Part shown: positions 38,288-42,906 of the stretch, piece by piece | Numbering within the stretch: the first letter of the stretch is position 1 | Layout of the letters: every line of letters starts with the position of its first letter | DNA from: a virus | Lineage: Duplodnaviria; Heunggongvirae; Uroviricota; Caudoviricetes | Virus record (IMG/VR): IMGVR_UViG_3300045988_152564 | Strand: one strand, 5' to 3' | DNA: 55,949 bases | Program-made: the position numbers and the translations under genes | Notes under the pieces: generated by a model | What the model saw: the letters and a program-made list of their open reading frames with translations, nothing else | Told to the model about the DNA's origin: nothing | Database searches by the model: none

Positions 38288-38797
38288 ATGGGGCACAATA
38301 ACACTAAGGGAAACCGTAAATTTATTAAGGGCCGCTATACTGCCAACGCGGCCAAAGGCGAACGACTGGTATCTTCTGAATTCCAGCTCACTTTTGCAGG
38401 CCATGAAGATATCAGCGTACTGGTTCGCACGTCGCAAATCCCTGAAATGACACGCGAGGATGTGGAGGACTATGGTCCGAATGGTGTGAAGTTCAACCAG
38501 CACGGACCAATTCGAAACTCTGGGGAAATCCAGGTCCAGTGCGTGGAGACTATCGAAGGCGATATTCTTCAGTTCATCAAGGATCGCATTGCGGCGAAGG
38601 ACTATGTTGATATCACGATGGCTGCTACCCCTGAATCCAAATCTTCCGGGGTTAACGCTGTGACAAAAGCTGCTACAACAATTGAAATGTTGGACTGCAA
38701 AATCTACAGTGATGCAATCGACTTTAGTACCGAAGATGTGACTGCCGCTGTGCGCCCGTCACTTCGTATCGTCTACAACTGGATTGAGTGGGATTAA
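38288..38797 (+). CDS. late structural protein (169 aa)
   Basis: Last gene of the operon, followed by a strong terminator. Confidence 0.45.
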   Translation: MGHNNTKGNRKFIKGRYTANAAKGERLVSSEFQLTFAGHEDISVLVRTSQIPEMTREDVEDYGPNGVKFNQHGPIRNSGEIQVQCVETIEGDILQFIKDRIAAKDYVDITMAATPESKSSGVNAVTKAATTIEMLDCKIYSDAIDFSTEDVTAAVRPSLRIVYNWIEWD

Positions 38798-38816
38798 GAG
38801 TCATCCCTTGTATTTT

Positions 38817-38841
38817 AAAGCTCCTTCGGGAGCTTTTTTTA
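38817..38841 (+). terminator. rho-independent terminator (AGCTCC-TTCG-GGAGCT + T7)
   Basis: Perfect 6-bp GC-rich stem, UUCG loop, T-run. Confidence 0.75.
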
Positions 38842-38959
38842 TAACTATTTTATATAAGAATGCATCGATAACATTGTCTTGAGTTTTATGTTAGATTATT
38901 AATGTTCTAATAAACTACAATTATTGAGGTAGATGTTTGTGCCTGTACTGTTAAAGGGG

Positions 38960-39565
38960 GACTCTAAAATGGCTGTGATTCCAATGTCGTACTCCCCGGG
39001 TACTGTCGCTCGTCGATTTTCGATCCTGGACGGAGTTACCATCCAGGGTGTGCTTTACCAGGTTATATGGGATTCCAAAACCCCATTTGCAGCTGTAATA
39101 GAGGCTGCGCCTTCTGTTATCGATGGTGATATGCGCCATAAGGTTGTCGCTACTCTTGAACTTCAACGTCGCCCGCAGCTTGAAGGCGTACTGGTAAGGA
39201 AGTTCTGGGAGGATAGCGATGTTGCCCAGATTGAAGGTATCGTGGTTGATGGAACCGTCCGGGATGTCGGTTTAGCTACTTTTGTTTACGAAACCGTAGC
39301 CTCAAAAGCTGGTGTTGTTTTGCTCAGTGATAATGAGCAATACGAAGGTGGAAAAGCTCTTTGGCAACACATCGCCCGTCGCTCTTCCGAGCTAAAAGTG
39401 TTTATCCTCGACACCGATGCCGCTCAGTATTACCCGTTTGACGGCGAACGTGTTTGCTATGACGGGGTAAGTATTCCTGAATCCGAGATATGGAGTGAAC
39501 ACCCAGATCGAAGTAAGCATGGGGTTGTTCTGGTCGCTGAATCCATAATTGGAAAGGCGGCATAG
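38960..39565 (+). CDS. orphan hypothetical protein (201 aa from ATG at 38960 with AAGGGGGA RBS)
   Basis: Stand-alone gene with its own AT-rich upstream region, between the tail-operon terminator and the IS element. Confidence 0.5.
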   Translation, partial: DSKMAVIPMSYSPGTVARRFSILDGVTIQGVLYQVIWDSKTPFAAVIEAAPSVIDGDMRHKVVATLELQRRPQLEGVLVRKFWEDSDVAQIEGIVVDGTVRDVGLATFVYETVASKAGVVLLSDNEQYEGGKALWQHIARRSSELKVFILDTDAAQYYPFDGERVCYDGVSIPESEIWSEHPDRSKHGVVLVAESIIGKAA

Positions 39566-39859
39566 CAGTAAAAAATTCCTTGCTCCTAAAAAGGGGAGAG
39601 GGCTAATCTACGTATGCTAAGCATAGATATGGCCTCAGATTAATGTTAAGCGTCTTGCAGGACGCGTAATGTTATCTGGGGCTTTCTTCTATCTGCTTGT
39701 CGGGTAATGCCTGAAGCAGATAGCCTCAAGCACCCGCAGCGATTGTATCAATGTCTGGCTTTTTTTCTATAGAAATCACCTGGAAGGGTGAATACCCACA
39801 TCAGAAGAAACGTTGCAGCAAACATGATCCCTAATGGCCAGACCGCGCCAAAGAAAATC

Positions 39860-41175
39860 CATAGTGACTGCTCCCCGCCCTGTCGGGCGAGGCTTCCCAC
39901 TTCTTAAGCCGCAACCGTCTGTGTGACGGATTTACGCTGGCCTCCATGGGCAGAAACGACGAGTCCCGCCGCTTGTAATTCCAGTATGCCCTTGCGTTTG
40001 ATGTTGAGCGCCGCATTGATATCGCGGTCATGTTCAACTCCACACTCTGGACACTGCCAGAAGCGCTTATGTAATGGCATCTCCGACATTTTGTGACCGC
40101 AGCAGTGGCAGGTTTTCGAACTGGCGAACCATTGATCCAGTTTCACCAGATGCACACCTTTCTCTGTTGCTTTGTATTCCAGTTTTGTGATGAATCCAGA
40201 CCATCCAGCATCGCCTATCGCACGAGCCAGATGGTGATTTTTCATCATATTTGCCGTTTTCAATGTCTCGACAATTACCGCTTGGTTTTCGTCAACAATT
40301 GCGCGAGATAACTTGTGCTGGAAATCGGCACGGGCACTGGCTACCCGTTCGTGAACGGCTGCAAGTTGTATTCTGGCTTTGCGCCTGTTTGCGCTCCCTT
40401 TTTTCTTACGGGACAGTGCTTTCTGCTTCCGGCGCAGGTTGCGACTTGCATTGATTAGGTGGCGGGGACTGGCAATTTTATTGCCGTCCGATTTGATGAC
40501 AAAATGCGCCAGCCCCATATCCAGCCCTGTCACATTTGATATCAGTGCGGGCTTTGCCGGCGCTTCCATCCCGTCGTCACAGAGTAACGACGCGTAGTAT
40601 TTCCCGGTTGCGCTGCGGCTCAACGTGATACTTTTCAGCATTCCCGTAATTTCACGATGTAAACGCGCTTCAATCGGCAAGATTTTCGGTATTTTTATCG
40701 CACCATCAAGGACTTTTATGCCAACACAATGATAGCTAGATTGTCTGCCGTGTTTACTTTTAAAGGTAGGTTTACCTGCTTTCAGTTTCGGATTGAAAAA
40801 GTTAGAAAAAGCCACGTCGAGGTTAATTACCGCCTGCTGCAACGCAATAGAATCATATTCTTTAAGCCATCCATACCGGCGGGATTTCTTCGCCACTGCA
40901 AGCAGTGGTTTGAGGTCTTTACGCGGGTTTAAATTTACGCGGTGCCGCTGGTAAGAATGTTTCTTGATATGCAGAGCTTTGTTGTACACAAAACGCACTG
41001 CACCGAACTGGGCGTTGATAAATTCAGCCTGTTCTGGTGTCGGATAGATGCGTACTTTTGTTGCTCTTAACATAGTCACCGCTCATTGGTACAGGTTTTT
41101 ATACTAACACCGTAATAATATTTTTAAAGCCCTTCGGGCTTTTCCGCCTTTCCTCCCCGCCCGCATTGGGCGAGG
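39860..41175 (-). mobile_element. IS200/IS605-family element carrying tnpB only (boundaries approximate)
   Basis: TnpB ORF flanked by related imperfect palindromes ctccccgccc...gggcgagg at ~39871-39898 and ~41143-41170; no tnpA. Confidence 0.5.
39904..41079 (-). CDS. tnpB: TnpB (OrfB) RuvC-like RNA-guided nuclease family protein (391 aa)
   Basis: RuvC-like GLDMG, C-terminal zinc ribbon CHCCGHKM...CPECG, DRDINAALNI. Confidence 0.85.
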   Translation of the reverse strand: MTMLRATKVRIYPTPEQAEFINAQFGAVRFVYNKALHIKKHSYQRHRVNLNPRKDLKPLLAVAKKSRRYGWLKEYDSIALQQAVINLDVAFSNFFNPKLKAGKPTFKSKHGRQSSYHCVGIKVLDGAIKIPKILPIEARLHREITGMLKSITLSRSATGKYYASLLCDDGMEAPAKPALISNVTGLDMGLAHFVIKSDGNKIASPRHLINASRNLRRKQKALSRKKKGSANRRKARIQLAAVHERVASARADFQHKLSRAIVDENQAVIVETLKTANMMKNHHLARAIGDAGWSGFITKLEYKATEKGVHLVKLDQWFASSKTCHCCGHKMSEMPLHKRFWQCPECGVEHDRDINAALNIKRKGILELQAAGLVVSAHGGQRKSVTQTVAA

Positions 41176-41230
41176 GTTCTCGGCGGTTTTTCGCTGAAAA
41201 CGCCAGGTAACTCCAGATTAGAGCAATCTA

Positions 41231-42076
41231 TCACCCTCTGAATCCTGCCGGTATACCCCATTGTTCGTTATCTTTATTTTTGGCTAAAACCGCATTAAGA
41301 GCTTCGTTTACCGTCATGCAATGCGGCAGATTATCGAAGTTTGATACCCCGCCAATATCAGGAGAACGCTTGTTCTTCAGGTAAGCATATTTCCGCGCTG
41401 CCGCCTCTACTTTCTGCTTGAACTCATGTTTTTGTGCGCGTTTTTTGGATAACCGCAGATTGTCAGCCTTTGCTTTTGCCTCAGCGATCCATGAAGTCAA
41501 TTTTTTGAGTCTGGTCGTTCCGGCACCGCCGGAAACTGATCTTTTTGTTTTTTTAACTTGTGACTTCTTATTCTTTATTGCCACGTCATCCTGACAGGGG
41601 GAGGGGGTATCATTTTGACATGGGGGTGTGGATAAAAAATTAAATAAAGCCAATGTCTTAGCGAGAACAGCTTTAACCTTGGTTGCCGCTGAAGAGATCT
41701 TTAATTTGCTTTCAATCAGCGCATTTTTGGCTTGTTGTGCGAAGGCCAAAAAGGATGGCGTAAACCGGTACAGGTTAGCGCGACGTTCACGGTGATCGCC
41801 GATAACAATCTCTACAGACAGAATTCCTTTGTTTACAGCTTCACGGAATGCACGAACGACGGTTGATTGGCTATAACCAGTTTCTGCCGCGATCAGGCGG
41901 TGAGGCTTGTGAATGAAGTATTCACTGGTTGTTGCCGCGAGATTTGCACATTGCGACAGGATATGCCCGGCGCTACGGGATAGACCGGAGTGTGTTACAA
42001 AGCAGGCCAATTCATAGCCAGAAAAAGTAAAATCGCTCATCGTTATACAGCTCAGGAAAGTGACTTTAGCCAGCAT
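41231..42076 (-). CDS. repL: lytic replication protein RepL-like (281 aa)
   Basis: Directly downstream of kilA in the same orientation; length matches remembered P1 RepL. Confidence 0.65.
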   Translation of the reverse strand: MLAKVTFLSCITMSDFTFSGYELACFVTHSGLSRSAGHILSQCANLAATTSEYFIHKPHRLIAAETGYSQSTVVRAFREAVNKGILSVEIVIGDHRERRANLYRFTPSFLAFAQQAKNALIESKLKISSAATKVKAVLAKTLALFNFLSTPPCQNDTPSPCQDDVAIKNKKSQVKKTKRSVSGGAGTTRLKKLTSWIAEAKAKADNLRLSKKRAQKHEFKQKVEAAARKYAYLKNKRSPDIGGVSNFDNLPHCMTVNEALNAVLAKNKDNEQWGIPAGFRG

Positions 42077-42105
42077 TACAATGCTGGTGGTTCTTACTAC
42101 GTCTG

Positions 42106-42906
42106 TTAGCGCGTTGCTGCGACAGGTACCAGCACACCAGCATCAAGCAATCGCTTCATCAGCCACTGCTGACCTTTGCCGGTTATACGAGTCGTGAAAG
42201 AAATCCTGCTTCCATTGCTTGTATCGATCACGGTTTCTTTAAGGGTGAAATACCCACGGGATATGTATTCTTGTTTGGGGACGTTCCTGCGTTCACCGGT
42301 TGCGATCAGAATTCCGTTATCACGCAACCAGGTGAAGAGATAGTTTTGGCCCAGGCCGAGCACTTTGGCATAGTTGCCGATTAGAACCCCGCTGGCGGTA
42401 GCAACGCGTTCGGCGAATTCGACTTTAGGTGCATCCATAAGCATTTTTTGCTCCAGCCGTTGCTTTTGCTCTGCCAGGTCGGCAGCCAAACGGAGAGCTT
42501 CAGGGAGACTCTGCGGAATAGCAGGTTGTAATCTTCCGGCTCGATAGTCGATAAATGTCTGGTTTACCTTCAGCCGAAACGCGGGAGAAATCCAGCCTGC
42601 GTACTCCACAGCGAGCAATTCATGGGCAAAAGTGCCGCCGCCACGGCCTTCGAACGAAACTATGCAATTCTGCATAGTTTCTTTTTCAAGCTCTTCGATG
42701 AGCTGTTTGGCTGACAGCGTTCTTAGCCATTGAGCTGGCGCTTTATGGGCACCGAGTCCGCTCGCTCTGTGTAGAGCATTAAGGTTGTAACGGCCAGCGC
42801 GGTCGGTCGTAATTTCAACACCACAAATAACAGGCAGAGTGGTTGAAGGATCGACATTTTGATGAAGGTTTGATATATTCATATCCGCATTGAATGTTTG
42901 TTGCAT
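42106..42906 (-). CDS. kilA: KilA (KilA-N domain plus antirepressor-like C-terminal domain, 266 aa)
   Basis: N-terminal KilA-N-like region; C-terminal domain paralogous to that of the ant gene; operator 70 bp upstream. Confidence 0.7.
   Translation of the reverse strand: MQQTFNADMNISNLHQNVDPSTTLPVICGVEITTDRAGRYNLNALHRASGLGAHKAPAQWLRTLSAKQLIEELEKETMQNCIVSFEGRGGGTFAHELLAVEYAGWISPAFRLKVNQTFIDYRAGRLQPAIPQSLPEALRLAADLAEQKQRLEQKMLMDAPKVEFAERVATASGVLIGNYAKVLGLGQNYLFTWLRDNGILIATGERRNVPKQEYISRGYFTLKETVIDTSNGSRISFTTRITGKGQQWLMKRLLDAGVLVPVAATR

Follow-up and report, generated by a model that had tools for sequence, protein, structure and literature searches.

The DNA analysed here, IMG/VR virus record IMGVR_UViG_3300045988_152564 (55,949 nucleotides; the whole stretch is called the window below), is a P1-like phage-plasmid that is of the RCS47 type and carries a tnpB gene directly downstream of repL, within the repL-bplB variable region. 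The locus raises the question to what kind of insertion sequence (IS) this gene belongs, how the element came to reside there without a tnpA gene, and against which DNA its TnpB protein is directed. The answer that we favour, and hold to be probable, is a tnpA-less chimeric ISEc46 with an intact TnpB and its predicted ωRNA, for which we propose a role in homing and, as the origin, recombination between two insertions.

Identity and ends of the element

The ends were established from five copies in unrelated contexts, namely two chromosomal ISEc46, two plasmid-borne tnpB-only elements and the copy in the window, and from two insertion-free P1-like phages. Coordinates are those of the window, and a slash in a sequence marks a junction.

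39864..41193, minus strand: whole element, a 1,330-bp tnpA-less member of the IS200/IS605 family and chimeric ISEc46 derivative, delimited by end comparison.
41111..41193, minus strand: left end (LE), with the left imperfect palindrome (IP_L) at 41155-41175 and the presumed left guide tetranucleotide (G_L), GAAC, at 41176-41179.
39864..39903, minus strand: right end (RE), with the right imperfect palindrome (IP_R) at 39873-39892, the right guide tetranucleotide (G_R), GAAG, at 39893-39896 and the right cleavage tetranucleotide (C_R), TCAC, at 39864-39867.

In the five-copy comparison the right end terminates with ...GCAGTCAC/ at 39864 and the left end begins with /CGAAAAACC at 41193. Nearly all of some 70 family members (from Photorhabdus, Serratia, Aeromonas, Vibrio, Halomonas and others) likewise end with ...AGCAGTCAC, and their flanks diverge immediately beyond it; the few exceptions end with GTCAT, GTTAC or GAGCGTCAC. 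The first-pass annotation had placed a tnpB-only IS200/IS605-type element directly downstream of repL, which is supported, and had given it a span of 39600-41230, which is too wide on both sides.

The same 1,330-bp element is present in P1-like contigs of IMG/VR, and the copy in Escherichia phage RCS47 differs from that in the window at four positions. In fact the element is already known: it is catalogued as ISEc46, the RCS47 record labels the same gene 'Transposase ISEc46, IS605 family', RefSeq describes it as RNA-guided endonuclease InsQ/TnpB, and the mechanism is established.

Several hallmarks of the IS200/IS605 family were recovered. The element has subterminal imperfect palindromes and no terminal inverted repeats, and its left end lies 3' of a specific pentanucleotide, as it abuts TTCAG. 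The palindrome arm CTCCCCGCCC occurs at 39871-39880 and 41153-41162 and the arm GGGCGAGG at 39885-39892 and 41168-41175, with no further occurrence of the hairpin motif elsewhere in the window. Both palindromes fold as single-stranded DNA into 8-bp hairpins with z about -2.4 (left end, -13.8 kcal/mol and z -2.4; right end, z -2.4, with covarying stem positions). Moreover, IP_L and IP_R have an identical stem sequence in the same orientation, and the stems covary across the family. The earlier reading of two related palindromes as subterminal hairpins thus holds, with the correction that the upstream one lies some 75-100 nt from the tnpB start rather than the ~60 bp that had been proposed. The flanks shown for other copies share no common repeat; at the window locus the 142-bp loss described below hides any duplication signal.

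The hallmark that is missing is the Y1 (HUH) transposase TnpA. No tnpA was found in the element or in the 55.9-kb window as a whole, where a tblastn search with the TnpA of ISEc46 gave a best E of 0.92; the absence noted at first sight is thereby borne out, and the element is therefore a non-autonomous derivative and not an autonomous member of the family. Near-identity to ISEc46 over the whole element, including both ends and both genes, was not found either, and the most fitting name for the element, judged by its sequence, is chimeric ΔtnpA ISEc46 derivative.

A mosaic of two lineages

The tnpB gene, the ωRNA region and the right end share 98-100% nucleotide identity with ISEc46, together with the same hairpin sequences and the same terminus. 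ISEc46 differs in its full length of 1,763 bp, and in it a divergent tnpA separates the left end from tnpB. What the window copy lacks amounts to tnpA plus a few bases, which would suit a plain ISEc46 that has suffered an internal tnpA deletion, without any second parent. Sliding-window identity led us to reject this. From 41193 to ~41075, i.e. over the left end and the tnpB leader, identity is 95-98% to a tnpB-only element of the type found on another plasmid (L004) and just 68-87% to ISEc46, and the segment carries the GAAC and the TCAG target of the former. From the ATG at 41073 to the right end it is 98-100% to ISEc46 and 70-88% to L004. Full-length elements that share the left end and do have tnpA exist (L111 and L112), but their tnpB is only 77.6% identical to that of the window. 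A plain deletion is accordingly very hard to uphold. The switch of identity falls in the patch ATGTTAAGAGCAACAAAAGTACG, which is conserved in all lineages, and by these identities the element is a mosaic: a TCAG-inserting tnpB-only sister supplied its left end and tnpB 5' leader, and the TTAG-inserting ISEc46 the remainder.

The two types of left end differ in target. A survey of 28 distinct left-end junctions in the family showed TTAG or TCAG at 27 of them. Where G_L is AAAC (...CGCCGTAAAC/hairpin; 22 junctions) the target is TTAG in 21 cases, the remaining one being ATTCG. Where G_L is GAAC (...CGCCGAGAAC/hairpin) it is TCAG at six out of six independent insertions (the window, L004, L111, L112, L113 and L114). 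For IS608 it has been established that the cleavage and target sequence TTAC base-pairs with a guide AAAG located 5' of the left-end hairpin, and that a change of the guide retargets insertion (PMC3201880). The combinations TTAG/AAAC and TCAG/GAAC, as well as TCAC/GAAG at the right end, fit the IS608 register (C1:G2, C2:G1, C4:G4), a register that we infer from the published C/G pairs. Complementary guide tetranucleotides are therefore present at both hairpins, as far as the sequence alone can tell. Because these pairs fit, both ends look suited to the action of a TnpA provided in trans. The element would move only with such a cognate TnpA, for instance that of chromosomal ISEc46; copies of the latter with tnpA are common in E. 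coli. More generally, for the two left-end types that co-circulate in E. coli, a different TnpA guide tetranucleotide goes with a correspondingly different target, a relation that was shown earlier by engineering IS608.

The empty site and a proposed origin of the chimera

39748..39863, minus strand: C-terminal 41 codons of the gene for an 81-aa two-transmembrane protein (phrog_3772), truncated by insertion and deletion.
41194..41198, minus strand: motif 5'-TTCAG next to the left end but outside the element, identified as the TnpA target site by the empty-site comparison.

The comparison with insertion-free P1-like genomes that the first-pass annotation had recommended provided both an empty site and a guide match at a CTTAG-flanked position. 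In the insertion-free phages vB_EcoM-673R5 (L003) and MH422554 (L002) the counterparts of window positions 39863 and 41194 lie 142 bp apart. The element of 1,330 bp thus stands in for 142 bp of backbone, which rules out a simple insertion. At the left junction these phages read TTTTCAG/TTTGAGG, and the right-end flank TATGGATTTTC... is preceded in the empty site by CTTAG/. Both junctions are therefore located exactly 3' of target-like motifs, TTCAG on the left and CTTAG on the right.

The 142 bp that were lost comprise the ribosome-binding site and the first 40 codons of the gene for the 81-aa membrane protein. What remains is part of a 50-aa open reading frame (ORF) at 39748..39900 (minus strand), the first 9 codons of which come from the right end of the element; positions 41-81 of the 81 in phrog_3772 match its residues 10-50. 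An intact 81-aa ORF is found downstream of repL in MH422554 (3151-3396), and the gene carries a frameshift in vB_EcoM-673R5.

We propose that TTCAG/ would have received an L004-type (i.e. TCAG-type) tnpB-only element, and CTTAG/, located 142 bp downstream, an ISEc46 in the same orientation. Homologous recombination between the two at the conserved tnpB start would then have created the chimera, removed tnpA and deleted the 142 bp in one step. Recombination between two insertions is the most economical account of the chimera, of the missing tnpA and of a 142-bp loss with cognate-motif junctions. The junctions that are informative on the origin are RE/TTTGAGGTCGG, CTTAG/CGAAAAACGCCGTAAACC and RE/GGATCATG.

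The last of these occurs in a further copy of the element in a P1-like context, in Kluyvera cryocrescens (L062, NZ_BCTM01000057, ~1201-2250), where an IS1 end truncates tnpB at codon 134. Here the identical right end meets the backbone 35 bp further on, at a position preceded by CATTAG in the insertion-free phages, and this constitutes a third TTAG-associated junction at the repL-bplB locus.

Alternatively, a pre-formed chimeric tnpB-only element could have been mobilised in trans to TTCAG/, after which a TnpA event joined its right end to the next TTAG/ and excised 142 nt as a single-stranded circle. Both junctions are indeed at TnpA target motifs, and the Kluyvera copy, with its right end after CATTAG/, looks as if the flank had been nibbled from TTAG to TTAG; the strand-transfer chemistry of IS608, we infer, would permit such an exchange of right end and target (PMC3201880, PMC3597680). 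This account nevertheless needs two events where recombination needs one, leaves a breakpoint at the conserved tnpB start unexplained, and calls for a chimeric element that was seen at no other locus among the samples examined. Moreover, a deletion adjacent to the right end is not documented in the literature that we consulted, and the left side of the Kluyvera copy, destroyed by IS1, is uninformative. We regard this course of events as rather unlikely, and retain recombination between two insertions as the preferred origin.

TnpB and its predicted ωRNA

39904..41079, minus strand: tnpB, 391 aa from the GTG at 41079, with the stop codon at 39904-39906.
39864..39974, minus strand: predicted scaffold of the ωRNA (right-end element RNA, reRNA), overlapping the 3' end of tnpB and reaching the right-end boundary.
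39848..39863, minus strand: predicted ωRNA guide TATGGATTTTCTTTGG, immediately 3' to the right end.

The likely start of tnpB is the ATG at 41073, which gives the 389 aa annotated in RCS47. The RuvC-like and zinc-ribbon motifs that had been recognised from the sequence alone in the 391-aa product are borne out by the profile matches and the structural alignment. More specifically, the Pfam domains HTH_OrfB_IS605, OrfB_IS605 and Cas12f1-like_TNB all exceed their curated cut-offs, the NCBIfam model guided_TnpB gives 341.8 bits (cut-off 100), and the protein aligns over its full length to the ISDra2 TnpB structures 8H1J, 8BF8, 8EX9 and 8EXA (E about 1e-74). The RuvC-like D-E-D triad is kept, with D185 in GLDMG, E269 in VETL and the D of HDRD at 349-351, and D185, E269 and D349/351 align with the catalytic positions of ISDra2 TnpB. 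The zinc ribbon (TNB domain) has its CxxC...CxxC pairs at 322-325 and 341-344. Both features that mark the nuclease of a TnpB/OMEGA system are hence present. The protein differs by one residue from that of RCS47 and by three from the TnpB of chromosomal ISEc46. A decayed ORF, which had been considered, can thus be set aside: the frame is intact, the catalytic residues are there and the relatives are one to three residues away.

For the ωRNA we aligned the last 170 nt of 52 elements (alignment A1). The RNAalifold consensus contains 35 pairs, 19 of them with compensatory changes. In the 31 retained pairs, pairing holds for 97.3% of the cells, and sliding the partner by 1-3 columns lowers this to 37-54% and the covariation score from 0.475 to 0.124 or less; none of 500 shuffles reached the observed values. 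The helices are located at 39974-39954, at 39950-39896 (enclosing 39942-39907 and 39929-39915) and at 39892-39873, and conservation across the elements ends at the right-end terminus. The structural evidence thus agrees with what is expected of a TnpB/OMEGA system, i.e. a structured ωRNA that extends to the right-end boundary and a flank that serves as guide. The placement of the guide follows ISDra2 (PMC8612924, PMC10097598), and its length of 16 nt is assumed by the same analogy, so that it could reach ~39844. The guide sequence occurs once in the window.

It had been suggested that 39600-39950 encodes a guide RNA. That the 3' end of the element specifies one is consistent with our data, with a predicted scaffold at 39974-39864 and a guide from 39863 to ~39848; the stretch 39561-39735, in contrast, is no guide RNA but a hok/sok leader remnant of the backbone (Rfam RF01794, 89.7 bits). 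This leader, outside the element, is the sole strong Rfam match in 38500-42500. A 17-bit Rfam match to HgcC at 39853-39963 was taken as chance. The fold of the single sequence, which has other long-range pairing and pairs the guide into the scaffold, was set aside for the alignment-based structure. A consensus scan for promoters and terminators found no signal that exceeded background around the left end or the ωRNA and was not used.

Predicted target and proposed function

In ISDra2, TnpB is an RNA-guided nuclease and its transposon-associated motif (TAM) equals the TnpA target (PMC8612924). Because the TnpB of the window is of the ISEc46 type, and considering the insertion sites of ISEc46, its TAM is most likely NTTAG. 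In the insertion-free P1-like plasmids the guide match sits directly after CTTAG, and since it does so the TnpB-ωRNA is predicted to cut these relatives. CTTAG and the guide match are intact in 296 PLSDB plasmids from E. coli, Salmonella and Klebsiella, and the RE/TATGG junction is present in 117. The latter count replaces an earlier one of 133 records at 80% or more, which included the ~80%-identical L004-type.

According to the proposed mechanism, TnpB would bind an ωRNA transcribed from 39974 to ~39848 and would cut double-stranded DNA at an NTTAG TAM followed by TATGGATTTTCTTTGG, i.e. at the CTTAG site in the 81-aa gene of the insertion-free P1-like plasmids. Cleavage would favour the IS-bearing copies by homing or gene drive, as for other TnpBs. 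TnpB has been reported to promote the retention and homing of transposons (bioRxiv 10.1101/2023.03.14.532601) and, in plasmids, to act as a gene drive for IS (PMC11870625).

An inactive or domesticated TnpB, be it a TldR-like regulator, a decaying remnant or a protein put to phage use unrelated to IS maintenance, would agree with the absence of tnpA, and its gene is directly downstream of the C1-controlled kilA-repL lytic operon, where phage-regulated expression is conceivable. We consider this improbable. The protein keeps its D-E-D and zinc-ribbon residues and a complete C-terminus, it is only 1-3 aa away from transposon-borne ISEc46 TnpB, and both ends are intact with an ωRNA region 98-100% identical to that of ISEc46. 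Moreover, most P1-like plasmids lack the element at this locus (296 versus 117), so that it is not a conserved phage function.

Several points weigh against our interpretation of the element as a tnpA-less chimera with a homing TnpB-ωRNA. The support for an active TnpB-ωRNA at this locus is sequence-based, as the ωRNA transcript and the cleavage are both predicted, and the TAM is deduced from insertion sites rather than measured. An Rfam scan of 38500-42500 (E up to 1) returned no ωRNA or IS605-orfB family, so that the RNA is identified by covariation and by the homology between the protein and the TnpB of ISDra2; folded as a single sequence, the RNA does only marginally better than its shuffles (z -1.93). 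With respect to the origin, the expected recombination intermediates RE/TTTGAGG and CTTAG/LE were not found in 5,426 complete E. coli genomes, where a record had to cover 80% or more of either query and the CTTAG/LE query used the left end of the window type, which an ISEc46-type left end at CTTAG would match less cleanly. With neither parental junction found, the two-insertion model is unconfirmed. Furthermore, P1-like plasmids have a low copy number, and a drive within the cell would matter mainly on superinfection or co-residence. Finally, the excised donor joint TTCAG/TATGG might escape TnpB, which would weaken a role in retention: the chimeric left end specifies TCAG and TnpB presumably needs TTAG, and the joint may for that reason be a poor substrate.

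A more tentative variant is one that we think possible although the odds are against it. The element would be an 'uncoupled' TnpB cassette, with a left end that directs insertion to TCAG and an ISEc46-type TnpB-ωRNA directed against CTTAG-TATGGATTTTCTTTGG, a coding site in about 300 sequenced insertion-free P1-like phage-plasmids of E. coli, Salmonella and Klebsiella. It would then function as an exclusion weapon or a gene drive between phage-plasmids and not as a retention device, and the pairs AAAC/TTAG and GAAC/TCAG would represent natural retargeting of an IS200/IS605 element through G_L. If so, rival P1-like genomes would be cut on co-residence or superinfection.

The finding in itself matters little, considering that ISEc46 and its TnpB are catalogued and that the TnpB-ωRNA mechanism is established. 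In the literature we found nothing that links TnpB or ISEc46 specifically to P1-like phage-plasmids. The added value lies in the dissection of a natural IS200/IS605 element that is recombinant and tnpA-less, with its ends placed to the nucleotide and its TAM, guide and ωRNA structure predicted, and in a testable predicted guide target in hundreds of competing P1-like phage-plasmids, which bears on the TnpB-driven spread of IS (PMC11870625).

Genomic setting

The region 39400-41400 shares 98.4% identity with Escherichia phage RCS47, and over 39700-41350 identity reaches 100% with a 96-kb plasmid from E. coli TUM1586. The minus-strand genes icd, ant, kilA and repL (41231-42076) precede the element in this order; the plus strand carries nearby a 210-aa ORF, bplB, pmgG and genes 21/22. 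P1-like elements are known to vary in the interval between repL and bplB (PMC9603915; PMC6906374). The order downstream of repL in P1 is a C1 operator, rlfA, rlfB and pmgF. The first-pass annotation was right that P1 has rlfA and rlfB downstream of repL and that the window does not; the insertion-free phages MH422554 and vB_EcoM-673R5 already lack them, however. The region had thus been replaced in relatives free of the insertion, and the IS did not displace rlfA/rlfB.

Directly after repL, the sequence ATTGCTCTAATCTGGAG at 41211-41227 (minus strand) corresponds to the C1 repressor operator Orlf (Op55) of P1. It is positioned 18 bp upstream of the left end of the element, and because of this proximity read-through into tnpB from the C1-controlled kilA-repL operon is conceivable.

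On the other side of the element, the remnant of a hok/sok locus at 39561-39735 (minus strand) consists of the hok mRNA leader/sok region and is not followed in the window by a hok ORF. MH422554 keeps hok/mok (MokW/Hok at 2814-2969), and homology to that intact locus ends at window position 39601. The remnant may be an orphan sok antitoxin region. In place of hok, phages of the RCS47 and vB_EcoM-673R5 types have the 210-aa ORF (38933-39565, plus strand; phrog_7522 at E 3e-147), which is absent from MH422554 and matches neither Pfam nor NCBIfam. Just downstream of bplB, a GC-rich hairpin followed by a T-run (38817-38854, minus strand) partially matches the Rfam family STnc130 in its terminator part, below the threshold (32.7 bits; gathering score 55), and is probably an intrinsic terminator only.

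Related elements and known systems

In comparison to ISEc46, which has AAAC as G_L and inserts at NTTAG, the element of the window has GAAC and is located at TTCAG. With the TnpB-ωRNA of ISDra2 from Deinococcus radiodurans (Karvelis 2021, PMC8612924) it shares the domain order and the catalytic residues and, as predicted for the window, a scaffold that begins within the 3' part of tnpB and extends no further than the right-end boundary, the flank being the guide. The TAM of ISDra2 is TTGAT, whereas NTTAG is predicted here; compared with ISDra2, tnpA is divergent in the ISEc46 parent and absent from the window element. IS608 of Helicobacter pylori has similar subterminal imperfect palindromes and four-base guides 5' of each hairpin foot in the same register. 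The left cleavage site (C_L) lies ~18 nt 5' of the foot of IP_L (19 nt in IS608) and C_R lies 9-10 nt 3' of IP_R. The sequences and targets of IS608 are different, and E. coli holds two natural left-end variants that differ in G_L and correspondingly in target.

The ~80%-identical plasmid elements of the L004/L114 type are also tnpB-only, have a length of ~1,340 bp, a nearly identical left end and the TCAG target; they differ in a tnpB that is 70-88% identical to that of the window and in their location at other plasmid sites. For instance, the one in E. coli AR_0089 plasmid NZ_CP032264 (L114, 1029-2368) is inserted at ATCAG between ardA and psiA and adjoins psiB and parB, a gene order from which we read a location in the leading region of a conjugative plasmid. 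Its exact left end and tnpB start variant are carried by eight sampled plasmids of 85-129 kb (H174-H181), L114 alone having been inspected. Full sister IS with their own tnpA (WP_045145567) and a 392-aa TnpB (WP_045145569) are present in norW on the chromosome of E. coli TUM9803 (L111) and on plasmid pGF60-C (L112), with a GAAC left end at TTCAG. They are likely the autonomous relative of the TCAG-targeting lineage.

At the other extreme of size we observed miniature derivatives of 46-48 bp, in which the 5' part of the left end is fused to the 3' part of the right end via a single hairpin, e.g. CTTAG/CGAAAAACGCCGTAAACCCTCGCCCGACAGGGCGGGGAGCAGTCAC/. They occur in IMG/VR contigs (L093, L094, L095, L101, L106, L108 and L109), on an E. 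coli chromosome (L113, 2496-2543) and in L089. These miniatures are either non-autonomous elements akin to palindrome-associated transposable elements (PATEs) or miniature inverted-repeat transposable elements (MITEs), or scars of recombination between left and right ends.

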